DNA of 64,000 nucleotides from Selaginella moellendorffii (lineage: Eukaryota > Plantae > Lycopodiophyta): contig NW_003314315.1 in the NCBI RefSeq assembly GCF_000143415.4, positions 1,301,514-1,365,513 on the forward strand, in the 5' to 3' direction. The translations under genes were made by a program, and so were the position numbers. Positions 30,205-60,528 of this stretch are shown piece after piece. Within the stretch, counting starts at the first letter, position 1, and each line of letters opens with the position of its first letter. The notes below the pieces were generated by a model. It was given only the letters and a program-made list of their open reading frames with translations, was not told the origin of the DNA and did no database searches.

Positions 30205-30550
30205 TAACTGAGATGGAGTTCGAGATGGAGTTTGAGATGGACCTAAAATGGAGTCTGAGATGGAGTCCAAGATGGAGTCTGAGATGGACCTGAGATGGAG
30301 TCCGAGATGGAGTCCGAGATGAACCTAAGATGAAGTCTGAGATGGACCCAAGATGAAGTCTGAGATGGAGTCCGAGATGGAGTCTGAGATGGACATAAGA
30401 TGGAGTTTGAGACGAACCTGAGAGGGAGTCCGAGACCGAGACCGAGTCTCCAAGACCAAGTCCGAGTCCGAAACCATGTCCAAGTCCGAAACCATGTCCG
30501 AGTCCGAAACTGAGATCGAGACTGAGTCTGAGTCCGAGTCCGAGTCTGAA
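30205..30550 (+). repeat. Minisatellite in 5' LTR: (GAGATGGAGTCC/GAGATGGACCT)n then (GAGACC/GAGTCC)n
   Basis: Directly visible tandem 11-12 bp and 6 bp units. Confidence 0.9.
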
Positions 30551-33500
30551 TACTGATACAGGCAGTTGGGTGAAAGCCCAAAGTGATCGTCCCCCAGGGG
30601 GGGGGGGCGGCTGCGGGGGGTTCCAAAAGTATAGTAGGGAGAGTGTGGGGGTTGGAGCCCAGTGGAGCCAGTTTGGCCCAGGAAGGTCATACCCAGTGTT
30701 GGGTGATGAGCTGACCACTGGGAAGTCCAAGACTAGAGTGAATACGGACCGACAAGCGGGGTAGCTTGGTGAAGTATTCAAGAGACGGCTCAACGGAACC
30801 TCGCTCTAAGCCCATGGCTAGAGCACCCAAAGGCGGAAGGCGGGGAGAGTACCCCCGAGGCCCGCGTAGGGCCACGGTGTTCCGAAATGGTGTCCCAAAG
30901 TCGCAGACTGTGGAAAGGAAGAGGAGTAGCCCTCTGGTGTGGTGACCAAGGACACAGTCACATGGTGAGGAAATCCAGAGGATAGTGGGACTTAGTGGTC
31001 GGGCCGTTAGGCCTTGATCTAGTGGCAGTGTTGGCAAACACAACCAAGGACAGAAAGGGACTTGGTGGGGACCGGAACGGAGATATTGGGGAAGGCTATT
31101 CCCCATGTCTGTAGGCATCCTAAGGATGTTAAGGAGTGGATCTGGGATGATCACTCATGGATGGATGACCCAGTCTTTGAAAGACGGGATTGGAATGTAG
31201 GTGGTGTTGGACCACTAGTGTGACCAAGGTAAATGGGCATGGCCTTAGCGTAATGGGTCGATACGTCAGTGGTACCTTGGGGTGTTGATCATGGGATCGG
31301 ACACGTGGAGCACCTGGACCAAGTGCTAAAGTTGAGTGGCATAGATGCCATTCTCAGGGCTAGCAAGCCCCAAGTCCTGAATGGGACTTATGGAAGTTGT
31401 GAATGAGACTCCTCCAAGTGGTCGGAGGTGCGGTTAAATGACTAAAGTAGAATGGAAACTTTAGTCGCTTACAACTTGGTATCGGAGCTGTTCCTTAGTC
31501 CGACTTTTATTGGTGGCCAAGTATATCACCACTTGTATTGGAATTGAAAGGTCCTAGGTGTGGACCTATCCTTGAAGAGTAGCATGTCGAGAGGACATGG
31601 CTCTCCACTCAAGTTCATGCATGAACTTGTGCATAATGTGGTGGATGGAAAAGGGCCAGTAAGGGAACGACTTTGGGATCTTGGGAACAGTATAAGGGTT
31701 TCCTCAGAGAGTTGAGGATGTGATCCGGATGAGCATTTGATGCAGCAAATGGGCTAATGTAGTTGTGGTAAACAACTATAGTTGGGATCACAGGAAAGAG
31801 GTAGACTCCAAAAAAATAAAGGAGTCACAAGATTACCCTTATGTGGTTGAGGCTGGTGCTCATAAGTTTGAGACCAGAATTGATGACTGTGGGAAGTCAA
31901 ATACGGAAGAGGACACAAGTCCTTGAAATGGTAGCCGGGGCTACTTCTAATAAATGCTGGAACAACCCAAGGAGTTGGGGGTGTATTTAGAGGATGAGTT
32001 GGTATTTTCATCACATAGACAAGTAGTTCTAAGGGGCAAAAGGTTGCCCCCAGAGAACGAAATCGAGTGTTAGAATAACACTCATGATGGTGGTCCTGGT
32101 GAGTAGGACATGAATACAAGAAGTTGTATTCCAATGAGCTAGCATCTCAAAAGTAAGACCTTATAGGTCGGGTGATTAGGAAAAGTCCAAAAGGCTGAAT
32201 GACTTAAGTGGAGTCAAGGAATAGTCCTAAAGGACTAATGGAAACATTTGGACTGAGGTGTGTTGTGCCCCACGAAGGATGGGGAGGATCATAAAATCCA
32301 AGTATGAGAACGGTGGGTATCTCATAGGTGGCAGAATGTGCCATATTAAAGTCGTGGGAAAGGTGTTCCCAGAAGAAGCAACTTTGGTGCAGAGTTGTGT
32401 GTGAACACTATGGTGTAGTGCTAACAGATAGTTGGCATAAGAAATGATTGGGTTGGTCTTGGCAAAGACCTAGACACAAGTGCAAAGTGTCATAAAGGTA
32501 GACTCATGGAGTCGATGGTGTGGGGACACCAAATGGGCCAAGGTGTGATACCTTGGGATTATGTTGATGGGTTCATGAGAACCCCTTGCCAAAGGAATTC
32601 TAATGGAAATGGGAATGGCATAGCCTAAGCTGGAAGGCATGAGGTAGAGTGTGGTGACCCGGATAATGATGGATTTGTGCAAGCACCAGCAATGAGTTGT
32701 AGGACTTGGCAACTATAAGGCAACTAAGCAAGAGGTGCAGGTAATTGGTTAAACAGGTAGAAGGTAGCTATCCAAGACTTCTTAATGGCATAAAGAAGTT
32801 AAATATACCCTTATCGGGGATAAGTTGCTTATGTTGTGATAGAGTAGGTCAATGTCGTAAAAGGAAATGCTCATTGTCAATGAGGCCATTATTGGGACAC
32901 TCAAACACTCTAGAACACCAAGAGGTGTTGTTTAGTGTTGCTAAAAGCAATAGATAAGGCCCAAGGGATAAAGTCCTTAGCGAATGATGGATAGAAGGTG
33001 CTATCCAAATGTCCAAGGTTGCAGAGATGGGAGAAATCTCTCTACCTGAATTGGACAAAGTCAAAAAGGGATTTTGGCAGGGCTAATGATGGGCATAGAA
33101 AGGCCCATAAGTAACAACGGTAATCCCAGCAGGTGGGATTACAAGGTGAGCAAACCCGGATCGAGGAACCACTCCCTAGGCTGTCGGGTAGGTTCATCCC
33201 TATGAATACTTGCCAAAGCATGGTAGAAAGTGCAAAGCTATCTTCCTAATTTGGAGGAGAATAACCGAAGAAAAGGTGTGAGGCCAAAGGCAAGAAGTAA
33301 AGGGATAGAACCAAACCATAGGAATTGACAAGCATGACCAAAGGTGGTTATGCAAGTTGGGAGTGGAGAATCAAGTGGGTGCTCAAGCATGTTGTTACTA
33401 GCGATCGAGATGCCATGGAGAGTCTAAAGCATGGGATTGTCCATGTTAGACTATATGGTAATTGGAAAGCTTGTGAAAATGAGAGACCTTAGCAAGCTAA

Positions 33501-35759
33501 GGAACAGAGTTCCTTGAACGTTCCCCTAGGTAGATAAATACCTAGTCAGCCAAGTGTAAATGGTTCATAGAACGGGCAAAATCAGAATGGCGTAGCAGAA
33601 GCGTGGTCTTGAAGCTTGCTAGGAGGCAAAGCTATCAAGGCTGGGGAAGTAGTTCCCGAGTGTTCAAAGAGAGGGCTTTGAATGAAAGTCGATGGTTAAG
33701 GACTTTCACGCTTATGCATGAACCATGTTACAGTGGCCGGATGACTTGCTAAGTGAGATTGGCAAGTTGGGGGAATGAATACCCTACTTGAAGGAGCCAA
33801 CTTCAAAGGGGTGGCTCGTGGGGCCGAGTATGGAGGAGTCCATGCATGATCACAGACATGTCGAGTGAGAGGACTTGGTAGTGGGGAGGAACTAGGTTCC
33901 TAAGCTGTGATCTGTAGCGCGCTTTAAATAAAAGTTGGTGCACCGGCGTGGGGAGTCATGCCATGCATCCTGCGTGATGCCATCCGTAGATGCATATACA
34001 GAGGTTGGGTTCGAGTCCTGACCCTCTAGTGCTTGGGTTTGAGTCCCAACTCACTAAGGCGTGGTGATGGTTTGGAATATGAGGACACTCATATTTCGGT
34101 GGTCATGGACTCTTAGTCGGGAGACTGGTTTGGGCACACCGCCAAGCGAAGGATGCCTCGGAGTCGTGATGCACGGTTAGATTGCTTAGTGTGAAAGCTC
34201 GGCATATCTAACTTGAGAACTTTGTTGCAAGTGGCACCAAGGACGTGGTGAATGAGATGGGGACACCTAGTCTCAATTGCTATGGACCCTTCGCCAGATG
34301 GGCTGGCTTGGGTGCACCGCCAAGTGTGGGGGATGCCCCCAGGGTCATGGTCAACAACTTAAAGGTCTAGAAGACCTAGTACCTTTTAGCAAACCTGTTA
34401 AGATGCCAAGGTTAGATCACTAGGTGATCTTATGGCCAAAACAAGGACAATGTCTTTGTGAGGTTAAAGGATAAAGTTCCAAGTTCAAAGTGTTGATTGG
34501 AACTATTGATGATGGTGTGGCTTGGTCAAGGTGACCAAGTGAGAAGGACACCTTAGGGAAATGAGATATGTCAATACGATGACATAGTGAGTCCGAGGAA
34601 AGTAGTCTCTATAAGAGACCCATGGGAGGGTCACAAAGTTGGGCCGTGGATAGAGCCTATAGCAGAAGATGCTAAAGATACCTACTAGGGGTGAACACCC
34701 TCCGGACTTGGCAAAGAAGAGTCTTTGCTATGGAACCGAAAGGATACTTCGAAAATGGAGGTAGCGATCCTATGTTGCTGAGTGCAACAATCAAGGATAG
34801 GAGCAAAATACTAGTGGCTAAGTAAAGAGCCATGGGAATCATGAGAAAGAATCCAAATGGCAAAGTTAGGCCAAGAACACTAAGGTGTTAGGTGCTAACG
34901 GATTGTGGGAAAGGCAATGTGTTCCCAAGGATGGATTCCCAATTGCTCTAATGTGGCGAAAGTGGAAGCTTCAAGGGTGGGAGCGGTAAGGTAGCCAAAT
35001 GATAGGGATGTGGACAGCCCTAGCACAAATTACGATAACTGGAACTTAGTGCTAAAGGTGGCACGATATCGAAGAGAGGATGATGGTGCCCCCAAGTAAA
35101 GAACTTCCTAGGATGGGGAAGTGGAGTTGCACCATGTGCAACGTAAGGTGTTGGAGACACCTAGGAAATCAACTTTGAGAAGTCAAAACTAAAAGTTCCA
35201 AAGTGCAAAGGTTACGTCGATGGAATTTGAGACTACTCGAGAATGAGTAGTGGAATTGAGTTAGAGAAGGTGTCTCTAATGGGTTTAGCGGGAACTGAAC
35301 CAATAAAAGGGAGCAAACTAGCCCAGGTGGTCAAATGAGTCTCTATATTGGAGAGACTATGCTCCTTAGAGGATGGATAAGGCATGGTGAGCCTTCGGTG
35401 TCAAACTATGGACAAATGTTGGCTGGGTGCCAAGGATGGAAATGGTAACACATGCGGGTGTTACTTTATGAAAGGGTTTACCGTTTGATGAGGACATTGA
35501 ACTTCGTCTATGGGTGGTGGAGTTGTGAGACACAAAATCCCTAGGCCCCAAAGTGGAGCCGAAAGGGTGCCATGTGGTAGTGGCTGAAGCGAAAGCCAAA
35601 CGAGCATAACACGTTTGGACTAAAAGCTCTGACTGGAAAAGGTCGAGAGTGGGAGTGGAACTCCCAACGAAGTGCTCAAGGAACGAGCACGAAGCGAGCA
35701 ATAAGTGAGGCTCCAAAAAGGGACCCCAAAAAGGACCAACACATGACATGTGGAAGTGT

Positions 35760-36290
35760 CTGAGATGGACCCAAGTTGGGGTCCGAAGTGGAGTCTGAAG
35801 TGGAGTCTGAAGTGGAGTCCAAGATGGACCCGAATTGGAGTCTGAAGTGAAGTCCGAAATGGAGTCCGAGATAGACCCGAGATGGACCCGAGATGGAGTC
35901 TGAGATGGAGTCTGACATAGACCTGAGATGGACCCGAAATGGAGTCCGAGATGGACCCGAGATGGACCTGAGATGGAGTCCGAGATGGACCCGAGATGGA
36001 GTCCGAGATGGACCTGAGATGGAGTCCGAGATGGAGTCCGACATAGACCTGAGATGGACCCGAAATGGAGTCCGAGATGGACCTGAGATGGACCCGAGAT
36101 GGAGTCCGAGATGGAGTCCGAGATGGAGTCTGAGATGGACCCGAGATGGAGTCCGAGATGGACCCGAGATGGAGTCCGAGATGGAATCGGGACCGAGACC
36201 AAGACTGAGACCGAGACCGAGATCGAGTCTGAGTCCGAAACCGGGACCGAGACTGAGTCCGAATCCGAGTTCGAGTCCGAGTCCGAATAC
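35760..36290 (+). repeat. Expanded copy of the same minisatellite in 3' LTR
   Basis: Same units, about 180 bp longer than in the 5' LTR. Confidence 0.9.
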
Positions 36291-37319
36291 TAATACAGGC
36301 AGTTGGGTGAAAGCCCAAAGCGATCATCCCCCAGGGGGGGGGGGGGGGCTGCAGGAGGTTCCAAAAGTATAGTAGGGAGAGTGTGGGGGTTGGAGCCCAG
36401 TGGAGCCAGTTTGGCCAGGAAGGGCCAGTTTGGCCCAGGAAGGTCATACCCAGTGTTGGGTGATGAGCTGACCACTGGGAAGTCCAAGACTAGAGTGAAT
36501 ACGGATTGACAAGCGGGGTAGCTTGGTGAAGTATTCAAGAGCCGGCTCTAGTTCCCCCGGGAGATCGAATGGTCGATGCTCCCAATCTAAGTGTGGGTGG
36601 CACTACCTACTTGGATACCAGGCGTGGCTCAACGGAACCTTGCTCTAAGCCCATGGCTAGGGCACCCAAAGGCGGAAGGCGGGGAGAGTACCCCCGAGGC
36701 CCGCGTAGGGCCATGGTGTTCTGAAATGGTGTCCCAAAGTCCCAAACTGTGGAAAGGAAGAGGAGTAGCCCTCTGGTGTGGTGACCAAGGACACAGTCAC
36801 ACAGTGAGGAAGTCCAGAGGATAGTGGGACTTAGTGGTTGGGCCGTTGGGCCTTGATCTAGTGGCAGTGTTGGCGAACACAGCCAAGGACAGAAAGGGAC
36901 TTGGTGGGGACCGGAACGGAGATATTGGGGAAGGCTATTCCCCATGTCTGTAGGCATCCTAAGGATGTTAAGGAGTGGATCTGGGATGATCACTCATGGA
37001 CGGATGACCTAGTCTTTGAGAGACGGGATTGGAATGCAGGTGGTGTTGGACCACCAGTGTGACCAAGGTAAATGGGCATGGCATTAGCGTAACGGGCCGA
37101 TACGTTAGTGGTACCTTGGGGTGTCGATCATGGGATCGGACACGTGGAGCACCTGGACCAAGTGCTAAAGTTGAGTGGCATAGATGCCATTCTCGGGGCT
37201 AGCAAGCCCCAAGTCCTGAATAGGACTTATGGAGGTTGTGAATGAGACTCCTCCAAGTGGTCGGAGGTGCGGTTAATTGACTAAAGTAGAATGGAAAATT
37301 TAATCGCTTACATACTAAA

Positions 37320-38090
37320 AGGGGGTTGCACTAGGCTCCATCAGGCTAAATTGGACCCTAGTGGAGCCAATTTGGCCTAGGAAGGCTGCACCCAAGTGTT
37401 GGGTGATGAGATAATCACTAGGAAGTCTTGGGGGGGGGGGGGAGGGGTTGCAGGAGGTTCCAAAAGTATAATAGGGAAAGTGTGTAGGGGTTAGACTCTA
37501 GTGGAACAGGAAAGACTAGTGTGACCACGAAATGCTATACTCATGTGTTGGGTGATGATATAACCATTAAAGAGTCCAAGGCTAGAGTGAATACGGATAG
37601 ACAAATAGGGTAGCTTGGTGAAGTGTTCAAGAGCCAACTCCCCAAGGGATCAAATGGTCAATACTCCCAATCCAAGTGTGGGTGGCACTACCTACTTGGA
37701 TACCTAGTGTGGCTCATTGGAACCTTGCTCTAACCCCATAGCTAGGGCAAGTAAAGGAAGAAGGTGCCCATGAGGCTCGTGTAGGGCCACGGTATTCCAA
37801 AATGTTGTCCCAAAGTCCTGTAGAGACCAAGGATACGGTTATATGGTGAGGAAGTCCCAGAGGTTAATGAGACATAGTGGTCCGGCTTGTGGGCCTTGAC
37901 CCAATGGTAGTATTGGTAAACATAGTTGTGGACAGAAAAAAACTTGGTAGGGACCAAAAAAGGATACTGGAGCAGTTGTTCCCCATGTTTGCAAGCATTC
38001 TAAGGATGTTAAAAAGTGGATTTGGGATGATCATTCATGGATAGATAGCTTAGTCTTTGAGAGATGGGACTTTGATGTTGGATCATTAGT
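37320..38090 (+). mobile_element. Older diverged partial LTR related to the 29960-37312 element
   Basis: Degenerate matches to LTR blocks (gtgttgggtgatgag, poly-G, ctagagtgaatacgga, gtgtgggtggcactacctacttggatacc, taaggatgtta). Confidence 0.7.
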
Positions 38091-38294
38091 TGTAAGGGAC
38101 TAAATTTTCCTGCCTCACCCTAAACCCGGCATGATACTGCGGCCCATAGTACACTGGCAAACCATGCTTGGCTAGGACAACATGCCACATGGGGCACCTG
38201 GGCCGCGGCGTCTTGCAAGGTAGGGCATAGCAGCCACAGCATCATGTTGCATGGCATGCCATCCTCACCTGTCTGCCTCGCATGGCATGCTGTG

Positions 38295-38394: not shown

Positions 38395-38514
38395 CTAAAT
38401 TAGAATAATATCAAAATAATAAATATTATATTCCACTCTAAAAGAAAAATTAAGGAAGTAATCTATATATATAAAAACAAAGGGCCAGACCCCCACAGCC
38501 ATCCAATCCAAAAG

Positions 38515-41500
38515 TCCCCCCGACTTCTCCCGTGGCATCTTAACCTGTTGACAGAGCTCACATGATTTACAATACTTGAGGATATTAGCCTTCATATTCC
38601 TCCAATAAAAATTGCGCTTAATCAACTTATACATCTTCTTCCCCCCAAAATGATTGGGCTCTAAATGATCATGATAGTAGAATAAAACTTGAGTAATTAA
38701 CGCATCCACTTGTGGCAAATATACACAGCCATTGTAGTAGAGAATCCCATCCACCAATGAGAAAGGGGCTTCCATCTAGTCTTGCAAAGAGACCACCTTA
38801 GCATCTTGAGCCTGAGCACGCACAATCAACTGCCTAAACTTGCTAACCACCTTACTCAAATGATGATAAAATTGTGTTTGTAATGCTGTCACATGACAAA
38901 TACAAGATAAAGCATCTGCCACCACATTTGATTTTCCCAGACGATGCTCAATAGGAAACTCCCCAAACTCTCTGAGTTTAACCATCTAACAAGCTTGCCT
39001 AGTGTTCAACTCCTTTGTGTAAAAAGATGTACAAGTGGTTTGTGATCTGTCAACACCACAAACAGTGCACCATAAAGATACATCCACAAAGCATGAACAA
39101 TAAAGAGTAACTCTTGCTCATATGTGGAATAGCATTGCTCCGTGAGATTCAAAGTTTCACTCTCATATGCAATAGGCTATCCCTCTTGCATGAGAACTCC
39201 TCCCAATGCATAACCACTCGCATCACATGTCACCTTGTAAGGTTTCGATGGATCAGGAATACAAAGCACTAGAGCCTTGTTCAACAATTGTTTAAGTGCC
39301 ACAAAATTCTTCTCTTGTGGCGTCTTCCACTCGAATAGCACATTCTTGCATAATTACGTCAAAGGAATAGCCACCTCTGCAAACTTATGCTGGAAATGTC
39401 GGTATCAACTAGCCATTCTATGAAAGCTACGTAACTCGACCACTAAAGTTGGTGTAGGCCAATTCTCCACCACAGCCACCTTCCTTGGATCCTTTGCTCT
39501 TCTTTGCATAAAGTTTGTTGTCACGAAGTAACAAAAGAACCTTGCACAAATGCACCTTATACTCCTCCATATTTTTGCTGAAAACAAGAATATTATCCAA
39601 GAAAATCTCCACAAACTCATAAAGATAACGCCTAAATACCTCTGTCATCAACCTAGTAAATGTGGCTGGTGCATTCTTTAAACCAAACGGCATAACTGTA
39701 AACTCAAAATGCCCGAAGCTTGTGTTGAATGTTGTCTTGGAGATATATGCATCATCCATTGCAATCTGATGATATCCACTCCTCAAATCAATCTTGGTAA
39801 CACTCATGCTTCACCAAGCTTTTCTAAGATATCATTCACACACGGCATCGGCATCTTATCCTTCACTATCTTTTTGTTCAAGACATGGTAGTCAATACAC
39901 ATCCGCATTGAACTATCCTTCTTTTTCACAAGCAAGACTAGAGCACCAAATGGACTTACTTAGCTGAATAAATCCAAGCTCATGTAACTCTTTGACTTGT
40001 CGTTGAACTTCTTTTTCCTCCATATAACTTAACCGAAATGAACGCTAGTAAATTGGCCACGTCCTTGGCTTCAATATAATCCCATGCTCCACATCTCGCA
40101 ATGGAGGCAACCCATGAGGAAGTTCAGATGGAAAAACATCAAGAAACTTGTCGAGTATATCCCATATTGCTACTTCGCCCCTACATGTGCCTTGGTCCCC
40201 CAAGTCACAAACAAACAGTAAGTAACTCGAAAGTGCTTTTCTATTACGACAAGCCTGCTTCAAAGATGTTGTAGAGAGCATAACAACTAGAGGTTGAACT
40301 CCCTCTCCAAACCACACATCTTTAATGCCACCGTACTCCAGCGATACACGTTTAAAACTCCACTTTATCTCTAAATCCACCTTCACCAACCAAGGCATCC
40401 CAAGAATAAAATCCGCATGATGGATATTTGCAAGATAAAAAGTCTCCACAAGTATGGTTTTGCCAACCAACACTTCTAGCCCCTCTACACAAGTATCGAA
40501 ATGCTAAGCAAAGGTAGTTACACCTTCCACCATATATGGAAGAACTCCTCGTGTGACCAGGCCATGCTCCACAACAAACTTTGCTAAAACAAAGTTATCA
40601 TCGCTCCCACTATCTAGTAAAATCTGTACTAGACCGCCACAAAACACGCCCTCTAGCATTAAAGCTGATTCATGAGTATCCTCGAGTTGACAAGCAATGA
40701 TCAAAAGCCTTTTCCTTTGACCGGAATGGTTGTCCCCATCATCCTCATATTGTAAAGTTTGCAATTTTTTAGTTTCTGACTTACCGTCAGTAGAAGATTA
40801 GCCATTCTTCTTGCTCTGCTACTTGTTTTTCAGTTGTAAACAATCAACCTTGTAGTGTCTAAGCTCGCCGCAATGATGACAACCCTATCTATAATTCTTC
40901 ACAAAGAACTTCTACTTCTTTAACCCCTTTGCATCTTAAGTACAGACTTCAATTTGTGGTGCTTGTTCCCATCCTTGTGTCCACAGCGATCATCATAATG
41001 ATTCTCGATAGAATGACTTCACAAACGCTTGCAAGACTTGTGCTTGTCATTGTCAAGTCGACAAGCCGCATCAAAGACCTATTCCAAACTCTTTGTAGGC
41101 TAAGAATGACGCAAGTGTTGCTGCATGCTCTCACTATGAAAGCCATCAATGAAGTAAGATTTGTTTTTATCTGGATCCTTTATTGGAACACGGCTAATCA
41201 AGCAAGTAAGCTTCTCAATATAGTCCCCGAGTGTCATTTTCCCTTGCTGGAAATGTCAAAATTCTGTGTGAGCATTCTCCACATCGTAGTGAGAGGCAAA
41301 ATGTAAATGGAAAACAACTTCAAACTCATCCATGGTAGACACTGGATCTGCAACACGAGACTCCTCAAGCCAATTCCACCACCGAAGACCTGCATCACGC
41401 AAAACCATTGGAATAGCCACTAAAGCCTTTGCATCCAGAGTTCCCCTAGCAACCAAAAACTTCTTCACATTAGCTAGCCATCGTCCACACCACCATCACT

Positions 41501-42001
41501 GGAAAAGGTTGGAACCTTGAGTCGATCTACTAAGGAAAGCTTACTTGGAGCCTAGCCTTGAGTGCCTCAACACGCCCATGCATGGTATCCATCATACCAT
41601 GCATCTTGCCTTGCATCTTTTGCTAATTTCGATTAAGGGCTCGCAATTCATGAACAACATCTTGAATGGTCCAAATTTCTGCAGCTCCATTGGCACCATC
41701 TTCGGCACCACCATCGATAATAGGATTCCAGCATTCAGTTTGGTCAGCCATCACAACCAACTTCTTTGATACTAATGTTATGATCCGGTGCAAACAAATA
41801 GAGATCTAGTTGCTCTAGACTATGTTACGCCACCTCTTGGGGTCCTCACCACCCAACCACCCCCGAGCTACCTCAAAAGCTCCATTGCACTCCACTATGA
41901 GCCCTAGGGTAAGTTAAGTCTCTTACCTTAACATGCCTTGCTATACCTTTGAGCCTCCCTTTGACTGACATTGACCATGTGGTCAAAGCTGGTGCTTAAC
42001 A
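38515..42001 (-). mobile_element. Decayed Ty3/gypsy copy (same family as 45738-62991), cut off near the gap; 5' LTR 41776-42001
   Basis: Fragmented gag, protease [34 protein letters not shown], RNase H and integrase zinc finger, with many stops and frameshifts. LTR TGTTATGATCC...TAACA. Confidence 0.9.
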
Positions 42002-48194: not shown

Positions 48195-48636
48195 AAGCTC
48201 TATTTCGTTAAAGTGGGAATTGTCATTATCCCACTTGTAAAATAAGGTTTCCAAACCTTTATATAGTATATAAATATAACAAAATTCAACTGCATTGAGG
48301 CACATGCCATTTTATTTTAAACAAGGAAATGTCTACTCAATCACTTCTCCTCCCCCTGCCACTGCTTCACCTCTCTCTTCTCCTTGTCATCGTCATCCAA
48401 TTTCTTTCCATCCTTTTAATATTAGCTCAGTTGCTCTGAGTCTAGGTGGAGCCCAAGTCCCCATTCAATCTTTACTTTCCCATTATTAATAAAACAACTT
48501 CTTAGACTTCCAATAACATGCTGTAACACTTCTAGTATAATGCAAATCCTCTCAAAGAATTGTCTTTTAATATTAATACAATGGCATGGAACCCCATGCC
48601 ATAATAAGTTACATTTTTAAATAAATACATGCCATC

Positions 48637-51600
48637 TCAGATTGTTATTTTTTGCCTCCAACGCCTATACAATAATCTTGGAATTTCATCACTCTCCACA
48701 CTATCAGGATTTAAACCCAATAGTAATGCCATCTCTTCTCTAACACGTCCATGTTCATGTTCAGTGGTCGAAGAACCCATCTGGTTGAGCAGATTATGGA
48801 GATGCGGATAGTGCTTGGCTAGACAATATACATGCCATAAATGATGACTGGTGTCTGTCCGATCAAATGGCTTCTGATATACCGTTCCATCTGCCATTTG
48901 GTTGATTTCTGCAGCCACCTCCTGGGCTGGCCGGTTCTCTATCACCATCGCTCCAAGCCGTTTTGCAAGGTCCCCCAGAATATACGGTTTCTTCTCCCTA
49001 GTTTCCATACTGCAAGAGATGGGGTGCACTGCATATGTGTGTGTGTTCGCTGCAGTTTTAATCGGCGAGTCATCAATGATGAGGATTTCACTTGAGCTAG
49101 CAGTCCGGTTCATCACTACAGCCTCTGGCTTGACGAAGATGGGCTTGCTACCCCTCACATGGACCATAGTCAAGCAATCTTCCTGCGTTAGGAGAAAGTC
49201 AAATGGTAATATTACTCGCGTCTGATCGTGCATCATCTGTAGCAACGTTAATGCATTGTGGCGCATCATGGATGTCCAAACTCCCAATTGCAAATTGAAC
49301 CCGGCCCTCTGTTTTAAGTGTCGCATGGTCATTATTAGATCCCGCAGTTTCTCCCGTGTGATTAATATGAATCTGTCTCTTTTGACCAACTTGCGACCGC
49401 AGGCTTTGGAGGGTGCAATGACATTCGAGGACGAGCCACGCTCATGGGAGAAAAGGACACCGTTCAGATCAAAAACGATACAGTACCTTCGCCGTGACTC
49501 TGAAATGAAATGCGTCAGTATAAAAAATGGTACAAGTCAATTTTACCATCTACAATATTAGCGAATGGTGCTCCCGATGGTCGTTGAGAGGGTTTTGGTC
49601 GAGGAAACGTGAAGGGCGGAAATACTCTCCTTTGCAATGTGGGGTCAATCGCATCCGATGGCGTGTGGGCACATGCCATTTCAGCTGTAGACTCTGGTAC
49701 AACTGGCTCAATAGTGGCATGGGGTGGTTCCGATGGCGTGTGATCACACGCCATTTCAGCTGGTGCCTCCGTTGGCAAAGTGGACATGACCGAACAGGCA
49801 GCAGAGACGGTGTAGGGAGGTTCCAACGGCGCGTAGTCAGACGATTGGGCACACGTTGAGTCCGTTGGAAATGAGGATACGACCGGCTCGGCGGCTGGGG
49901 CGGCCTCATGTGGGTCCAATGGCGCCTGGTCACCGTCAGTTGGATACGTGGACAAGATTGACTCAGTGGTATGGGCAGCATCAAGTGGAGCGTGGTCAGC
50001 TTGCTTGGCATTGATATGGATAGTAGCCTCCACCAGCTCTGATGACTCTTGCAGCCAAGTAGAGTCCACTGGCGGATCCATATGCATGTCCAAATATCTC
50101 CCTTCGATTGAGATGGTATCCTCCCGTGCTACTAAAAACAAACTCATTAGCACATTGAATCGACTATACTGTATTTACCATCAACTGCTATTGAGGAACT
50201 AGGACCGATATCACTTGGGCGCACTGCTGATTCTGAAGGATTGGACATACGTTTCGACCCTTGCTTGGCACTATCCTTCCTCGACACTAAAGGCTAGAGT
50301 TTGTAAATTCAACTGAATAATCTCTACTTACCATTTGCTCTGCGACCTACATGGACAATGTTAGAAATGGTAAAAGGTTAGGAATGGATGTACTATTATT
50401 TACCTGATGGTTTGTCTTGTATGACCTTCCTCCGCTGCTCTTTGGCCACCTCAGGCTGGCCATCGTCGTCATCATCGTCGTCGTCGTTATTGTGATCGTC
50501 ACTATTGTGAGGACCATCCAAGTCCTCTTCGTCCTCCTCTTCTTCGTCCTCCTCTTCTTTGTCCTCCTCTTCGTCCTTCTGCTCTTCCTGCTCATTATCT
50601 TTCTCTGGCTCCTCATCCCCCTCCTGCATTTCTTCCATAGGCTGCTCAGGCTGGATGGCTTGTTCTTCCAGAACCATCTTGGGAAAATCATCTGGCCGAG
50701 TCTCCATCTCAAAATACAAGACATCCATAGCCTGTTTTAGTGCGTGACCTAGGACCGTATCCTCACCCGACTGTCTTAACATGGTTTCTGCACGTTCTTG
50801 CACCCTTCGAAGACGACGAGATGAGAAAAACGTGGCCCTGACTTGAAAAGCTTCCCTCATCCATTGTACCTCTCCATTGAGATTGGGGAAGGAGAGTCCG
50901 CCATAGGAATCTGAGTCATGAGGTGGTGACTGCCTGCTTTCACTCAGCCCTTGATCTGCAATGAATGGCATGAGCACACACGCCATAACCGCGAGGCATT
51001 ACCTATCATCTTTTCGTTGCCCTTCTTCCTTTTCGAATCAAACGCCTCTGATCTCGACGAATGTCCAACGTGCTTTCGCTTTTTATGACCACTGTCAGTT
51101 TGAGCTTGGCTGGTGCTTGCCTGTTTTGCCTTTGAAGAAGTTTCTCCTGCAAGGAATGGCATGAGACCACACGCCATTGCAAATATAATTTGTACCTCCT
51201 TTTTTCCTATTGCTTGTCTGTTTGTCCTTCTTTGATGCGCCACCAGTGCGCTTTTCAGTCCTCGTGTCTGAATATTCACAACGATCTATAATCAAAATGG
51301 CGTGAGGCCTCACGTGACCTTACCTTGTGCAGGTTGTGAGCTCGGCCCAACATGGGTATCTTCAACAGTAGCTGTTAACGCCGTTTCAGCATCTGGGGGT
51401 GGCCACGCTCCTGCATACAGAGCTTGTGAGATAACATTTAAACTTAAAGTGTGTACTCACCAGGTTCGCAGAGAAGATACTGTTTTTCTTTGGCAACTGT
51501 AATTATATGCTCCATTGAAGTCACCTCTTCAATGGAGTTTGTCACCGCAACACACGGGACACCCTTGAGTAGTGCGGCTCGAAAGAATAGTCCGCCGCAG

Positions 51601-54259
51601 TTGTACTCGACAACGCATTTGCCCTTGGAGTCGGAAGTAGGTGACCCACCCGCTATTGCGTTGAAGACCCAGCTGAGCATTTCCCATGCTGCACCTGGAG
51701 CTTTCTTTGGATTCGAAAGCTCCATAGCCGTCTTCAGTTCCTCAGGCACGGGTAAATTGACCTCCCTCAAATCAATTCGATTGGCCTTGTCGAACGAAGC
51801 TGGGAAGTCACTCCAGTCCCACTCTGCTGCAGGACCAATAACAAGGGCGAGTGTGAAGATGCGGACATTCGTCGGTATCTTCTTCTTAGCCATTATCCCA
51901 TGGATCTCCCGCATCTCCTTGCCTTTCAACCGAGCCTTCACCTCGTTCAAGGCCTTCTAGAACTTGTGATAGGATTCGGAGTCGTAGATCATATAGTGGA
52001 CTGAAGATTCCACCTCCGCAAGTCCCACCATTAAGTCAATGATGGAGCTGACTTCGTCTGCATGAGTGATCTCCTCGTTTGTGAAGTCCATCACACAAAA
52101 GATGTTCTTGACCTACTCATCTCCGCGGGAAACGATGCTCCTCCACCTTTGATCCTCATCCGAATTCAATTATACCCGGTAAGGTTCTCGATAGGCCTCC
52201 GCTGCGGGGTCGAGCTGTTTCTGAAGCTGGCGGTCGACATCAATCTTAATGAAATTTGGATACTGATCCAACTTCTCAGCTTTACTTTTCGTGGCATCCC
52301 GCAGCAGATCGATGAACTTGGGGGCCCCCTTCACGTACTCGTCGATGTCTTCATTTGACAAATCCAGTGCTTCCATCATCTCTTGCGTGGTGTCGATGCT
52401 CACCCTCTCCACGGCCACTTGCTCGAAGATCCAATCCTTCAATAGCGCACGAGCTCTCAGAGTCGTGCACAAGTCCTCGTATGTCACAATATGGCCGGGA
52501 GTCATTTTGGTCTTGTTGAAGACTACCTCACCACGTAGAAGAGCATTAGCCACTGTCAGAAGGTCGTCGTCGTCTAGAGACCGCGAGAAACGCAAGGCGT
52601 TGAGCTTCAAATCATTGGGCTTCCGGCCGTCCTCCACACCCATTGAGTTTGGCAACTCCCCGTCATGGTACCTCCTCAGCACATCTACCCATTTGTCAAA
52701 AACAACTTTTGTCGCGAGTAGAATGTTATGGATGCTGAGTGTGTCATTGACCCCCAGTGTTTTCGAGAGAAGACTCGAGAATTCCTGCAATGGAAATGGC
52801 GTGAGGCCACATGCTATGCCACATGCAACGAGGCTTACCTGCCAGGCGCTAGTTGCTAGTGCACGTCCTTGTCCTGGTTTTTGTGGCTTCTTCAGTTGAA
52901 CCCAGAGCTTCCGTGTTCGTGCCAATGTCTCGTGCAGACCCGATTTGTAGCACGTTTCTTGCTTGACATTCTGCGCGTGGGAGATGTATATGATAGATCG
53001 GAGGGGCGAGTTGCCTTTTATCAGGCGGACAACTCTTGTCTTGAAGACTTTCTTCACCTCCTCGCCCACCATAATATCCACAACTATCTCTTGCATCGCC
53101 AAGCTAGAATGCTGCCCGGAGACGGCATAGAACCGGATGTTCTGATCGTCCAACACCTTCCTATTGATCAAGTCTGGAAACCTCGTCTTGCCCTTCATTG
53201 TTCGGTAGTAGGGGATCACGTCTGCGATGTCGGGTGTTACTGGACTTGCCAGCATCTTCTGCTTCAGTTTCTCCACCCACTCATCAGATACTAGCCTGTG
53301 GTTGTATTTGCTTTGGATGTCGATACGGCTCACGTCGATTGTATATACTTTGTTGGAATAGTAATAAGTACTATTATCTGCGACGATTTTTGCTGCCTCT
53401 TCTTGCTCTTTCTGCTCTTTGCGGCTCTTCTTTTTGGTGGGTGTAGTGTTCGAACCCGAGGCAATGGCATCACTGAGTAGCTTCTTTTTTGGAGCAGGAG
53501 AGTCGGACGTCGGCTTGAGCTTGACCACCCTTTTCTGCTCCGAGGTAGTTTCCAGATCGACCCCCTTCCCCTTTGCTTCGCGAACTGGAGTCACTCTCAA
53601 CGGCTCAATGTTGGAATATAGTTTTTGAACATCGCCGTAGGTGAGGTCCGTGGATTCCATGTGATCTTCATAGACCCGCAGCGTCTTTGAAATTGTGGGC
53701 CTCCTGGACAACCTCTCCCTAGCTCGCTCTAGGAATTCCTCATAGCCGCTGCCCCCCTCCGGGAAGCCGCTAGGATGTGCAAGGTGGATCTTGAAGGCAG
53801 ACGCTGTCTCTACCACAAGTGCCAGTCCATATTCTTGCATGGAACTGCATGGAGTGTCTGTCACTTGGATGAGGATCCCCATGCATTCTTTTCTCCCACC
53901 ATCTGTGTTGTACAGCCTCAGATCCTCGCCTTCCATCCCGAAAGTCCAACTGGTGAGCTCCTCCTCCTTCTCTGCATCCACATTGACAGTGGCTGGAAGA
54001 AGAACGCAATTCCTCGCCTGTTCAGAAATGCACAACAATTAGAGCTGACAGATGAAAAGCTAGTAGCTGGAAATAACGTGAGGCCACACGCCATTCACCA
54101 CTGCATCAGATGTCTTGAGGCTGCATCCTAAGATGGCGTGAGGCTACACGCCATCTGTAACCGGACTGCACTCAAGAGCCCAATCGGTGCATGCCAATGT
54201 TGCTACTGAATGGCATGTGGCCTCATGCCATTTTCTACTTGGCCTAAAAGACTTACCAT
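48637..54259 (-). pseudogene. TE cargo gene (spliced): ParB-like domain + degenerate beta-class N4/N6 DNA-MTase fold + acidic/low-complexity linker + FCP1/NIF-type HAD phosphatase; three in-frame TAR stops
   Basis: ATG|gtaag at 54259 and a chain of GT-AG introns that keeps frame to TGA at 48637. Motifs: NHRLVSDEWVEKLKQKM..FYAVSGQHSSLAM; KCVVEYNCGGLFFRAALLKGVPCVAV; IVFDLNGVLF..VWTSM..QEDC..LIIDDSPIK. Confidence 0.7.
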
Positions 54260-55452
54260 TTGAGTAGAGTAGCCTTGCTGCTACGATCCGCTGCACACAC
54301 AGTGCACATTCGCCAGCGAGTCCGGTTGTCACGCCTCCATTCGGCTTGGAGAGTGGCGCTGAAATCTCCCGGGACGCCAAGTGGGCTGCGTGTGGGTGGC
54401 AGAGTGGGCGGCGGAGTTGGTGGCGAAGTTACAAACTGGGTGTGTCTTGAAGTGGACGCCGATGCACACGAGCGCGATGCGAGCGCAAGTGTGATGCAAG
54501 CGCGAGTGGACGCCAATGCACACGAGAAACCTGTAGAGAAGTGGGGCGCGAGTGGGAGCGCGATGCGAGCGCGAGTACGAAGCAAAATGCAAAACCTAAC
54601 CTCACACGCGCGAAATGTCACGACGGTTGGTAATCCCGCCACGTCATCATTCCTCGGACTTGGGCGCCACCATTAATTTCTGGATCGGCACGCGCATGCG
54701 TGAAATCCAAAAGAAATCCGCAACGTCATCATTCCTCGGACTGCATGCACGCGAAATCCAAAAGAAAGATCATGATTGGGATATCATTTAATACCCTCGC
54801 TATATTTATACCATGCATGATTGGATATTCCAAAGCATCTTGTATTTCCAAAAATGCCAGATGTTCAGCTAAATAAATTGTCAGAGGATTTGATGTGATG
54901 TTCAAGCGTGTGGGCTCATGCAATTTTGATCCCAAAAAATGCACCAAAAAATGCTCGGCGTCATCTGGCGTTATCTCTTGAATGGCGTGGGGCCGCATGC
55001 CATTTTCAGGAGCACATAGGAGTATATTCCTAGAATATTCTAACACGCGCGAGATTGTTTTGAGTTTCCTAGAGATCCAACCGTTAGATCGCAACTAGAT
55101 TTTACAGAATGGTATACAATGTCCTTCTTGATGACCCTGCAAAGAAGCATCTCGATCGGACACCACATGAGACCACACGAGCCTTACAATGTTTCAGGGG
55201 CATTTGCCATAGATCCGACCGTTATTTTGCTCCAAGATTCTACAGTTTGGTGTGCATTGACCTTTCCATCGACACTGCAAAGGGACATCACAATCAGATG
55301 CGGGATCACAAGAAACCAACTTCACTAACTCTGGTTTCACCAAGATCTACGTAAGGAGTTATGAAATGAAAGGACCCTCTCTATTGAAATGTGTTTATGG
55401 TCCTAGGGGCATTGTGACATATCAAAGGATTTTGCATCAAGCTACTGAATTG

Positions 55453-55485
55453 CTAAACCCTAAACCCTAAACCCTAACCCTAAAC
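55453..55485 (+). repeat. Short interstitial plant telomere repeat, about 4 units of CCCTAAA
   Basis: ctaaaccctaaaccctaaaccctaaccctaaac. Confidence 0.85.
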
Positions 55486-56344
55486 ATGTGGCAAATGCTG
55501 CGTGAAGAAAGATGCCCTTTCTGGGCAAATGCTGTAAGAGGCAGATTCCGAGCAGATGTATCTCAAGCTAGCGAAGGGGACAAACGAAAGCTAGCTATAA
55601 ACATGACGGGATGCAAATAGATTATTAGGCTGGTCCTGCGAAAATCAAAAACCATAATTGAAAACATTGAAAATGCAAAAAGAAAGGTTTATAATATTTT
55701 TGAATTTTAAGCAACCAAATGAATGTAAGTAGGGCATGTGTTTGTAAGTTTAAAAATGCCTCAACCACTTAAATTCCCAAGTAAATAAAGCTGTTTCTAT
55801 TTTTGGTACAGGTAAACTTTATAGCGTGTGGGCTCATGCAATTTTGAACCCAAAAATGCACCAAAAAATGCTCGACTAACATTATTCTTTGAATGGCGTG
55901 TGGCCTTATATTGCCATAAATGGACGTACACACACAGCATAATTATTCCTTTACACGGCGAATAATCTTGGCGCGGATCGCTGACATGGCATGGCAAAGT
56001 TCGAATCACTGACATGGCACAGTTGGATTGAGGCAAGGACATGATGTGACAAAGTTCAACCTCCGACAGCAAAGTCTAGAAGCTACTCAGTTTGAAATTT
56101 GTCAGAGGAATCATAAGATCTGGTTTGTCAGAGGATTTGATGTGACGTTCAAGCGTGTGTTATTTTTGAATTCTCGAACTCATTCCTAGGTCTATCATTT
56201 TTGTGCGCCGTGTTCTTGGTTCCGCTGAGCGCAGTGAGCGCTACTTGTGTAAGCGGCGTTGTGAGCTGTGGTTTATGCGTCTACAAGCGGTTGTGGCATT
56301 GCGAGCACCATTGCAAGCGGCAGTTTATGCGAGTGGCAGTTTGT

Positions 56345-56416
56345 GCGAGCGGCGCTACGAGCAGTTGCGGTGTTGCGAGCGGCACTACGAGTAGTTGCGG
56401 TGTTGCGAGCGGCACT
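56345..56416 (+). repeat. 30-bp tandem repeat (about 2.4 copies) upstream of the transposase
   Basis: gcgagcggcrctacgagyagttgcggtgtt repeated. Confidence 0.75.
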
Positions 56417-56770
56417 GTCTTTGGTGTGGCTACCGCTTCCTCTTGATATTCGGCACTTGTGCTTCCTGGTATGTTCACCATGGAATGGTTTAGGACCACA
56501 TTTAGAAATGGCATGAGGCCACATGCCATCTTGGGCCCTTGCAATTTCATGGCTAGCGTATTGTCATGTATGTTTTTACTTGCCTGCAGCTGTGTGTATA
56601 TCAAGATGGCATGAGGCCTCATGCCAATTTTGTGAATGCGAAATTTCACGTGGGTGTCAATAGCATGTTTGAATAATGGCATGTGGCCTCATGCTATTTG
56701 GTATGTTATGATTTAGGCCATTCTCCAATCATTTTTTGTATGGTCTTAACTTCTTTTCTGCATTTTCAGA

Positions 56771-59700
56771 ATGGCCTTCAGGGTTGGGGAAAAGGTTTAC
56801 ATTTTGAATGGTGGGAAGAGAGTTGCAAAAGGGACCCTTGTGTCTATGGATCGGAACTTTGTTATACACTATCAAAGGCTTGGGGAAGGCAATGCTGCTG
56901 TATCAGTAGAGACTGTCTTTGATGGGAATGTGGTCGCTATTGAACGAGGAGAGATGGTCGTCGGGGTAAATGTTGTTGTTGCCTTGAAAAATCTGCAGAA
57001 GAAAGCAGATGTTGGGGACAGCGCAAGTGCGACGCATGTTCCCTCCGTGAATCTTAAGAACCATGCTACATGGATTCAGGCAAAGGTGTTTCTAAACAAC
57101 CCCGAGGGGGAGGTGGTAGCTGAGGGCTTAGCCACAGTTGTCGATCCAAGAGATGCGGTTGCTAATCAAGAATTGGGCTGGGATGATATTGGAGTTGCGA
57201 TTTTAGAGGTTGTTGACACAGAAGAAAACAGTCTGACTATTGGAAGCATTGTGCGGTGGAAATTGACGCATTTAGTGTTTGAGAATGTGAAGGATTCACA
57301 ATCAAACACCACTACAACTGATGACAGAACATCTCTTCATGGGAAAAGAAAGTACACCTTCCTACAGCGTAGCCAAAGGGATCTGAGCAACGAACCGAAA
57401 AGGCAGAAAATGGCGATGGAGGTTCGAATGGTCTCGACAGTTGCTTGTTGCAAGAGGAGGTGCTGTCAACATGCTGATTGGGATGCTATTGAAGAGGAGA
57501 GAGCAAGATACAAGACATTATCCTAGAAGGCAGCTCGCAATTTTGTGTATGAGGCATTACGGTCATCTGTTGATGCTTCAGAACATCAGGTGGGGGGCAT
57601 GGTCTTCCAGAGGGGTTTGGTCTGCATGAAGGCATGGAGAATCATTTATGAAGTCCCTCGAAGCACATTCTACAGAATCAAAACTAAGTTCGAGGAACAA
57701 AGGGTTCAACAGGCAGTCCATGGGAACGACGGTACGCACAAAACCAGGGGTCATGTTGTATATGGAGAGGCAATCTTCAAGAGGTTTGTCGAGACATGTA
57801 GCGAGCAGCAACCACATAAAACCCGCCTCTTGGAAGATGGAACACGAGACACCCAACGAGTTCTCCCTTCCATGTATACCAAGGGGGCCATATTGGAAGA
57901 TGTGAATCAGGAACTCCAGAGTAATGGCTACAGGAAGCTGAGCCAATCTAGATTTAGTAGATTGTGGAGCAACAGGTTCAGGGATGTGAGTATAGGAAAG
58001 TACTCCAGCTTTTCAAAGTGTGACGAGTGCACTGCTATCAAAATGGCTTTGTCGAAGAATTCTTGCAGCGCTCAAGAGCGAGAGACATTGGTTAGAAGGC
58101 GGCTCGACCACAACATCGAGCAGAGAAGCTGCAGAACTGCATATTATCATAACAGGATTCTCTCCATGGAGAGACCTGACTCTTACCTCTGCATCATCCA
58201 CGACAAAATGGACCAGAAAAAGACGTGCTTACCTCGACTCAATCCTGCCCCCAAGGCAATCTCTTCATCCATGCAGCTGCCTGTGTCTCTGTTTGGCATA
58301 ATCGCTCATGGGCATGGTGCCCAGAACTATGGGAACTTCTTTGTACCTCTATGGGGTGGCGGGGGTGCAAACATGATGATTGCGTCCCTAGCAAAACACT
58401 TAAGGTCTCTGCAAAGTGCGCAGACTGAGCTGAACGGCCAACCCTTGCATAAGGCCCTTGTCGATCGAACCCCATACAGGGTTTAGCTGGAGGAGGAGCA
58501 AAGGCTTGCAGTATCGCGTGGGGCCCCATGCCATCCTAGTGAATATGTTGGCCGTCAGATTGTAGGGTTATCACGTGAGGCCTCATGCCATTCCGACGAG
58601 GCTGGTCGCCCGGTGAATGCACAGCCTCATCCAAACGAAGCAGAATCTCAAGGAAGTTCTTGCGGCCGATGTGGCCTTCCACCCCATCTTCTGCTCCAAA
58701 CAGACAATGCTGGTAGTAAGAACAAAAACATGTACGTCTTCGCGTACTTGGCGATGCTTGTTGCCAAAGGCATATTTGAAACGGTTACACTTGGCTTTCT
58801 CATGGTTGGGCACACTCATGAAGACGTTGATGCCATGTTCAGTCACCTGGCAGAGTCCCTCCGGCGATCCAATGTCCTCACCCTCCGACAACTCTACGAT
58901 GAATTCCAAAATTGCATCAAAGGCACTGTTGAAGCTGCACTTGTGACAGAGGTTCCAGACTTTAAGGGGTTTGTAAGAGGCTACATCAGGGACGGATCCG
59001 AAACGCTGATTGGCCACTCCAAGCCTCTTCAGTTTCATTTCAGCATGCGTGACGGTGCTCCAGTGATGAGGTACAAGATGAGAGAATGGGACACAATGTG
59101 GCTGCCAGTGGATGGCATTGAACTCTTCAAGAGAGATCCCATAACTGGGGAACCTATGATTCCTCAGGGTTCCCCACGGCCGATGCACCCGGATGGACTC
59201 AAAGACCAGGAAAGTATAGTGGCCGGGATTAGACAGCATATTGCCTTCTGGAAGAGGGGGTTGGTGTTTGGTGGAGAATCCTATTTTAAGAGGTGCAAGC
59301 CTTTGCTCGAATACTGGGAGAAGATTATATCTGCTATCCAAAATGGGCCGGTTGTATATGAAGAATTGGAAGAGTCCTTTTGGCCAGAACCCAGAGCACC
59401 AGATAGTAGCGGAACAATGTCCTCTGGAAATGCAGTGACAGATAACGATGTTAAGGATCACTATTGTGGGCCGAGGAACAAGAAGCCGGATTCAGCATTC
59501 AATCCAGTACAGGTCTGCAAAGGAATGGTCGTGCTTGTCAGACCCAGTAATAAAAAACAAATGATATGGGTGGGGCGCTGCATCACTGATGCAGAGGAGG
59601 ACGCGGAAACTAACTCTTTCAATGTAACTGTGGAGTGGTTCAAGCCAAGTTCCGGATATACGAAGGATTGCCTAGAAAAGAGATGGGTGCTGAATCCAAG

Positions 59701-59839
59701 GGATCCCAGCATGAGCATATCGGTGGATAATGTTGTGCATGGTTGGATGCGGAAGCAGAGTGCCACCATCACCTTGCCAGACCATGCAAGAGATGCAGCA
59801 AGAGCATTCATAACCCGGGTTCAAGGTGAGATTCATTAA
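56771..59839 (+). pseudogene. Sola-like DDD transposase, ~1020 codons in one frame with two in-frame TAG stops
   Basis: ORFs 56771, 57545 and 58613 share one frame, broken only by TAG at 57524 and 58484. Motifs: CMKAW..STFYR, FSKCDEC..H, IIHDKMDQ, LQTDNAGSKNKN, FLMVGHTHEDVDAMFS. Confidence 0.8.
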
Positions 59840-60528
59840 TATTCCTTTACTAAGTTTCTAATGTATTTTATTTCAAGGTGAACAATCCGAATCTGAATCA
59901 AAGGAGGCGTGATGGCATGTGGCCCTTTGCACTAGTATATCTTAATACCGGTCTAAGAAATAGAATGGCATGTGCCCTCAGGCCTTTTACTAAATCACCT
60001 TTGAAAGAAATGCAAGCCTCTATGTCGTAAAAAAAAGGTACTAGAGAAATTCCTTAATAATATGAATGTTATTTAGTTTCATGAAAATACACTAAGGGTC
60101 AAATGAGTTAAATGACTTCTCCAGACTAGCAATGCCTCTTGCTACACCTTCACAATTAGATTCGTTAGAAAAAGATAACATTGAATAATATCTAAATGTT
60201 CTCACCATTAAGTTATATGTCTGGCTAATAGGAATGACGTTCATCTTGGAAAGCTCACCACACGCTCAATGAACAAACAAATAGTGTGTGCGCGCATGCC
60301 ATCGCTCTTCTTTAGCTTCAGATTCGGCTTGTTCACCTTGACAATGAGATTTATTATACAACCAGATGGACTCAGTCTAGACACAAAGTCACCGCACTAG
60401 TCACCATGCCCCAGATATGTCTAGCCCCTGGACAAAAAACATATAATTTCACGTCATTTTCAAATACTTGAAAATTTGTACCTAGTCCCATTTTACTGAA
60501 TAAATCCCACTTTAACGAAATAGAGCTT

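Follow-up and report, generated by a model that had tools for sequence, protein, structure and literature searches.

Dispersed 22-bp palindromes in a Sola1-like transposon of Selaginella moellendorffii: candidate binding sites for the element's predicted ParB-like protein

A Sola1-like transposon with two divergent genes

The 64,000-nucleotide stretch of the Selaginella moellendorffii genome analysed here (NCBI RefSeq assembly GCF_000143415.4, contig NW_003314315.1, positions 1,301,514 to 1,365,513 of the forward strand; hereafter the window) contains a DNA transposon along which a 22-bp palindrome recurs about 20 times, each copy resembling a binding site for a dimeric protein, likely the ParB-like protein that the element is predicted to encode. 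The element is bounded by terminal inverted repeats (TIRs) and an ACAA target-site duplication (TSD), and an empty site with one ACAA is present at ~39611, in a second, decayed copy (38509-42001 of the window) of the Ty3/gypsy retrotransposon that hosts it (Table 1). TIRs and a 4-bp TSD are described for Sola transposons in the accessible part of PMC10741241, and both are found here (27-bp TIRs, ACAA, empty site); PMC4455052, PMC5751038 and PMC9033089 contribute no decisive point. By its DUF7869 transposase the element appears Sola1-like, and its TSD and termini resemble those of Sola1-1_Ec32.

Table 1. Features of the transposon, with positions counted within the window.
Feature	Position	Strand	Remarks
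Left TSD, ACAA	48191..48194	+	Sequence; single ACAA at empty site
Whole DNA transposon	48195..60528		12,334 bp; TIRs, TSD, empty site; sits in reverse transcriptase region of Ty3/gypsy retrotransposon
Left TIR	48195..48221	+	27 nt, starts AAGCT; arms 96% complementary
Palindrome	48581..48602		Immediately 3' of accessory gene; pattern and matrix
Predicted accessory gene	48637..54260	-	11 exons, 10 GT-AG introns, 1,653 aa; three in-frame stops in window copy
NIF/FCP1-like HAD phosphatase domain	49039..49485	-	Predicted C-terminus; PF03031, E 6.7e-6, above cut-off; DLNGVL, perhaps inactive
Palindromes 49658 and 49733	49658..49754		Coding, low-complexity, proline-rich linker; local duplication
Three predicted introns (47, 49 and 38 nt)	50956-51002, 51147-51195, 51286-51323	-	One palindrome each: 50965, 51156, 51297
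Alpha/beta domain	51465..52112	-	Like a degenerate N4C/N6A methyltransferase by eye only; no clear catalytic motif; unconfirmed
Helical domain after ParB fold	52221..52799	-	Candidate helix-turn-helix-type DNA-reading domain; putative equivalence
Predicted in-frame 54-nt intron	52785..52838	-	Contains palindrome 52796
ParB/Srx-fold (CTPase-like) domain	52935..53369	-	Motif SGQHS; AlphaFold model
Predicted first intron of accessory gene	54018..54257	-	Palindromes 54073, 54133, 54210
Intergenic region	54903..55914		Sites 54982, 55821; weaker copies 54903, 55893
Predicted 5' untranslated region (UTR) intron(s) of transposase gene	56469..56769	+	Palindromes 56508, 56606, 56676; putative, from GT/AG signals
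DUF7869 (Sola1-like) transposase	56771..59839	+	1,022 codons; Pfam PF25273, E 7e-39
Palindromes 58513 and 58570	58513..58591		Insert of transposase that varies among relatives
Right-hand sites 59965, 60281	59912..60302		Weaker copy 59912
Right TIR	60502..60528	-	27 nt
Right TSD, ACAA	60529..60532	+	Sequence

The transposon family is multi-copy, since contigs from three of four public runs join across the element (12,338 bp skipped) and two have other sequence next to its left end. That the element was assembled even in runs whose contigs total just 2-5 million letters suggests a high copy number. The window copy itself is decayed, with five in-frame stops, two in the transposase (57524, 58484) and three in the accessory gene. 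Where run X3 differs from it, 93 of 132 places are A>G or T>C (19 of 22 in the comparison of 53950-56800), as would be expected if the window copy had lost methylated cytosines. Just 5' of the predicted accessory start, ~85 bp (54263-54346) appear in inverted orientation when compared with the principal contigs of runs X3, X9 and X20, judging by an opposite-strand joint and contig breaks.

The two genes are divergent, with the transposase on the plus strand and the accessory gene on the minus strand, and telomere-like (AAACCCT) repeats occur between them at 55453-55485; similar repeats lie near transposase relatives in L012, one of the loci described below. The transposase is 30-37% identical to ten intact relatives from liverworts and other assemblies, and the acidic motifs HDKMD, DN and GHTHEDxD, which are kept across the 11 aligned sequences, would fit a D-D-D triad. 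A search of viral contigs with the transposase gave no match, and DUF7869 is not mentioned in the literature searched.

The accessory gene was modelled by coordinates, and one acceptor, that of intron 8, was selected so that the reading frame continues. Nine of its ten predicted introns measure 38-57 nt. Predicted intron 2 coincides with an 18-aa gap against homologues, several of whose open reading frames (ORFs) end at this position; one public run presumed to be RNA showed no joints. The protein has acidic and proline-rich linkers, and its homologues occur in Selaginella, Riccia and Calypogeia, the nearest in Selaginella moellendorffii, while Riccia has the transposase too; a word-index search with the accessory-protein alignment returned no match.

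The AlphaFold model supports a ParB/Noc-like fold for the N-terminal domain. Foldseek places Noc, ParB and KorB at the top, with the best match, 7ol9 (Noc-NBS, E 8.5e-4), being a Noc-DNA complex, and structure alignment (VIA) to Caulobacter ParB gives Z 10.9 with a root-mean-square deviation (rmsd) of 2.1 Å over 98 residues. In addition, the atlas neighbours of the domain are the clusters DUF3723 and ParB_N, with ParB_N on 35% of its cluster. A Pfam scan of the element's ORFs found no match to a ParA-like partner. For the alpha/beta domain, PDB sequence, fold, PHROG, NCBIfam and phage searches lent no support to a methyltransferase identity, and the model is of low confidence (pLDDT 46).

The palindromes and their placement

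The pattern ATGGCRTG-N6-CAYGCCAT, allowing at most two mismatches, has 19 matches in the window, 18 of them in the element (48581 to 60302) and one outside at 33943, against an expectation of 0.09 from shuffled sequence (100 shuffles, maximum 1). A symmetric weight matrix, built from 12 of the sites in the element and so circular for those 12, recovers 19 sites of at least 15 bits inside the element and none in the 51.7 kb of host genes and retroelements outside it; at cut-offs of 8-12 bits it finds 22 inside and 2 outside, with 0-0.3 expected per 12.3 kb. Thus, the description in an earlier note on this DNA of about 20 copies essentially confined to the TIR element, with a single loose outside match near 33943, is borne out by these scans of the window. 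The interval that it gave, 48581..60302, covers the sites, whereas the element itself is wider.

For site statistics, we used the 18 pattern matches together with site 51297. The consensus is ATGGCRTG-W-GGCC-W-CAYGCCAT, and symmetry is complete at site 49733, where 11 of 11 pairs match, as the earlier note had stated. That note was also right about the fixed length and conserved arms, but the 6-bp centre that it called variable is constrained: GGCC occupies it in 10/19 sites, and position 10 is G in 36/38 half-sites. Immediately outside the motif a purine is favoured (32/38 half-sites). At positions 6/17 the pairs comprise 5 A-T, 4 G-C, 7 G-T and 2 A-C (18 sites; Fisher p=1.0), such that the arms vary independently. 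Alignment of the sites reveals no TSD at single copies beyond the motif's own AT ends, and the sequences beside them are unrelated, averaging 0.30 identity in 231 pairwise comparisons among 22 sites, the exceptions being three local pairs. Between family copies, none of 22 substitutions in 53950-56800 falls within a site, a number too small to count, with some concealed by contig ends.

The sites are spread along the whole element at spacings of 57-1,837 bp, and 15 of the 19 are non-coding, although 8,031 of the 12,334 bp are coding in the predicted gene models. Predicted introns account for ten: the accessory gene's first intron and the transposase gene's 5' UTR intron hold three sites apiece, and the remaining four occupy introns 38-54 nt long; the accessory-gene intron sites are up to 5.9 kb from the nearest element end. 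The four coding copies listed in the earlier note (49658 and 49733 in the proline-rich linker, 58513 and 58570 in the variable transposase insert) are confirmed, and all fall in variable or low-complexity protein stretches, sparing conserved sequence. The sites are not concentrated at the element's ends, and neither pattern nor matrix finds a half-site in the TIRs. At the right end, a 47-nt imperfect inverted repeat (59873-59919 / 60295-60341) flanks 375 bp, and each of its arms ends in a motif half-site.

In all four short introns that carry a site, the right arm contains, on the sense strand, a CTCAY that precedes the AG by 15-17 nt, which suggests that the arm supplies a branch-point-like sequence there, although this was noticed post hoc and in four predicted introns. 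The other sites give such a CTCAY in 10/30 orientations, and YTNAY is found at that place in four of five motif-free short introns.

Elsewhere in the window, two related repeat units (29900-38100) contain 12-bp-type tandem arrays (GAGATGGAGTCC) with strong GC skew, and the loose match at 33943 lies between them. Ordinary plant genes occupy 646-23356, namely two pentatricopeptide repeat genes (one DYW), an alanyl-tRNA synthetase, a starch-synthase-type glycosyltransferase, a cytochrome c heme lyase and a patatin-like lipase.

Palindromes among relatives and the reader of the sites

Scanning metagenomes with the transposase alignment yielded 204 confirmed stretches; the best 80 loci (L-numbered) are the relatives considered here. 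Palindromes are clade-specific and recurrent among these DUF7869 relatives. In L002, a TTGGCCATATGGCCAA-type site occurs ten times 5' of the transposase, in a loose 97-145-bp repeat, while L057, L048 and L038 each have five copies of other palindromic motifs. In an AT-rich clade of decayed copies, TRGTGGCCACYA flanks the transposase on both sides, with 48 matches in 75 kb in or near nine copies versus 8 in 70 kb outside; the left boundary of this clade was set arbitrarily 4 kb upstream, and no TIR was found for it. A controlled screen, blind to the AT-rich motif and with one tandem array among its positives, finds at least four dispersed palindrome copies above shuffles in 7 of 43 relative loci. 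Most palindrome-bearing contigs are decayed or end less than 2 kb upstream of the transposase, and in L057 a divergent gene is truncated by the contig end. The one clearly complete relative, the DUF7869 element L040 (90-9746), has long TIRs and a TSD of 4 bp. A profile search and the palindrome screen found neither a ParB match nor a palindrome family in it; its opposite-strand accessory ORFs look SET-like and oxygenase-like by eye. In L048 (2584-4991), the five palindromes lie directly 5' of an ORF of the P0071-P0092 family (~885 aa). Its resemblance to ParB, judged by eye, found no support in profile, Pfam, PDB or atlas tests. Upstream ORFs in three loci (L044:528-1514, L048:7085-8086, L078:908-2203) look C5-cytosine-methyltransferase-like by eye, with no Pfam match at 0.01.

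The palindromes look like double-stranded sites for a symmetric dimeric protein because their arms are independent, their centre is conserved, single copies show no TSD and their flanks are unrelated; to this extent the dimer-site proposal of the earlier note stands, while the identity of the protein is less settled, given the relatives' palindromes where no ParB gene was found. The independent arms, conserved centre and lack of a TSD also speak against two other readings. The copies could be neutral micro-insertions, akin to introners or very small miniature inverted-repeat transposable elements (micro-MITEs), or leftovers of local duplication. Indeed, 16/19 sites would allow a reading of the motif as an 18-bp hairpin bracketed by AT dinucleotides, the four tiny introns hold little beyond it, three site pairs have common flanks and the L002 sites sit within a loose repeat. 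However, the AT pair belongs to the symmetry, which reaches the outer purine, and it is only these AT ends that repeat, contrary to independent micro-MITEs with a TSD each; five of nine short introns lack the motif, intron 2 stands where several homologue ORFs break off, and a mobile unit would not stay within one element, all of which make such an origin very improbable. Even less credible, in our view, is a role of the palindromes as hairpins of RNA or single-stranded DNA, such as one in the splicing of the minimal introns: the intronic location of 10/19 sites and the placement of CTCAY in all four short introns would suit it, but the arms do not covary, the transcribed strand has A-C mismatches at 49658 and 52796, what would be the loop is conserved, and copies are also present between genes.

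A host transcription or chromatin factor, whose sites the element gathered for expression in a favourable cell type, would account for the clustering in first introns and in the divergent promoter region, as well as for the telomere-like promoter repeats at 55453-55485. Yet 22 bp with ~18 constrained positions make a long site for a plant factor, the host genes and retroelements of the window lack any site of at least 15 bits and each element clade has an entirely different motif, with two of them occurring in contigs from a single assembly, so that we consider a host reader improbable. The main rival is the transposase itself, which might bind the palindromes as internal or subterminal sites, thereby pairing the ends of a long element or activating its own copies. 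Palindromes track transposase clades, with one motif in L001/L003/L004/L005, another in L002 and a third in the window; those of the AT-rich clade lie on both sides of the transposase, and no ParB gene was found there. By itself, moreover, the AtMu1 transposase recognises cognate motifs and activates copies, according to the part of 10.64898/2026.08.24.746577 available. Against this, few of the screened relatives have at least four dispersed copies and the complete L040 has none, the window sites avoid the TIRs and fill accessory-gene introns far from either end, and an accessory gene would track the same clades as the transposase. On balance, the transposase is a possible reader, though we doubt that it is the actual one.

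We consider it somewhat more probable than the contrary that the palindromes are binding sites for the element's predicted ParB-like protein, which would mark and regulate its own family. We favour this protein because its fold family binds palindromes, as ParB, Noc and KorB all do, because the sites are internal rather than terminal and because red-algal ParB genes accompany inverted repeats beside an unrelated transposase. The complete L040, which yielded neither a ParB match nor a palindrome family, is in keeping with this. Several observations weigh against it. Relatives of the transposase bear palindromes of their own where no ParB gene is found, which weakens the link to ParB: L001, L003, L004 and L005, whose transposases are 53-76% identical to P0004, share the 24-bp palindrome GCTCAAAC-N4-GTTTGAGC (2, 2, 4 and 1 copies, at most 4 mismatches), and none of the 80 loci, on contigs that are short or decayed, yields a ParB gene, even though the profile used, which was not trained on the window gene, detects that gene at 7e-30. 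The helical domain aligns with those of ParB, Noc and KorB (model residues to 342) only at rmsd 10-16 Å, and the accessory-gene introns that hold sites are those of the predicted gene model. Moreover, the ParB CTP-binding motif is GxxR, which is replaced here by GQHS (AISGQHS in the profile of 15 homologues, SGQHS in the window) with the upstream Arg and downstream Asn kept, leaving CTP clamping by this family uncertain. The term 'parS-like' used in the earlier note is fair as an analogy, whereas a role in segregation is unsupported.

If the ParB-like protein is the reader, a dimer would contact the two half-sites via its helical domain and may coat or spread along the 12-kb element, bringing its C-terminal modules, the unconfirmed methyltransferase-like part and the NIF/HAD domain, to the element's chromatin. 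Each gene's first intron holds a cluster of three sites, an arrangement that suggests control over the two divergent promoters, either as anti-silencing, as for VANC, or as autoregulation, as for KorB, and in the four minimal introns the right palindrome arm might double as branch point. The decayed window copy would depend on intact copies elsewhere. A more far-reaching proposal is that land-plant Sola1-like transposons carry a complete self-recognition system of bacterial ParB/parS type, with loading at family-specific palindromes in minimal introns whose bases double as branch points, spreading, shielding from silencing or joining of distant ends, and divergence of site and reader by family; this we put forward tentatively and think unlikely to hold in full.

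Comparison with known systems

The modelled N-terminal fold links the accessory protein to bacterial ParB-parS, Noc-NBS and KorB-OB. Palindromic sites are spread along the replicon in bacterial ParB-family systems, and KorB uses them to control transcription. The Selaginella system differs in its 22-bp site, in the GQHS motif, in having no ParA or segregation context and in residing in a eukaryotic multi-intron gene.

Among transposons, Sola1-1_Ec32 of Ectocarpus is described, in the accessible text of PMC12477816, as a giant TIR element with AA...TT termini, a 4-bp TSD whose last base tends to be A, and an opposite-strand gene encoding a ParB-like and then an N4C/N6A methyltransferase domain. 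TIRs, 4-bp TSD, AA...TT termini and the opposite-strand ParB-like accessory gene are shared with the Selaginella element, in which, by contrast, the methyltransferase-like part is unconfirmed, a NIF/HAD domain is added, the TIRs measure 27 bp and the host is a land plant; palindromes are not mentioned in the main text of that paper, as far as it is accessible. Iyer et al. described methyltransferases fused to ParB-HTH in algae (PMC4738411, in part). In red-algal Plavaka elements (EnSpm), the available part of 10.1101/2025.02.11.637652 reports ParB-domain PAG3 beside inverted-repeat arrays and proposes that it binds or modifies its own sequence. A ParB-domain accessory protein and inverted repeats within the element are common to both, but Plavaka has tandem arrays beside PAG3, a transposase of another superfamily and a 2OG-oxygenase effector, whereas the Selaginella sites are single and dispersed, including in introns.

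In Arabidopsis, the VANC proteins of VANDAL elements recognise short motifs that lie in the introns and between the genes of the elements encoding them (PMC5735166, in part). Here too, an element-encoded accessory protein is accompanied by family-specific short motifs in intronic, intergenic and terminal non-coding DNA, as seen in the 15/19 non-coding sites and the clade-specific motifs of relatives. VANC motifs, however, are 8-9 bp, non-palindromic and in one orientation via tandem repeats, the transposase is Mutator-like and function is demonstrated, while the Selaginella system is known from sequence.

Few systems have been shown for transposon self-recognition and escape from silencing, namely VANC, TnpA and AtMu1, and the algal ParB-domain accessory genes were proposed for self-recognition without a defined site, whereas the Selaginella candidate is a sharp 22-bp consensus in ~20 copies. 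A multi-copy plant family and relatives with different motifs would allow reader and site to be matched by binding assay, and a eukaryotic ParB-fold reader with evolvable 22-bp specificity, if real, would be of interest as a DNA-targeting module. In a literature search that excluded most subscription papers, no report of comparable sites in transposons of land plants turned up. What we propose as new is thus a land-plant variant of the transposon self-recognition already put forward, on the basis of ParB genes and inverted repeats, for algal transposons.

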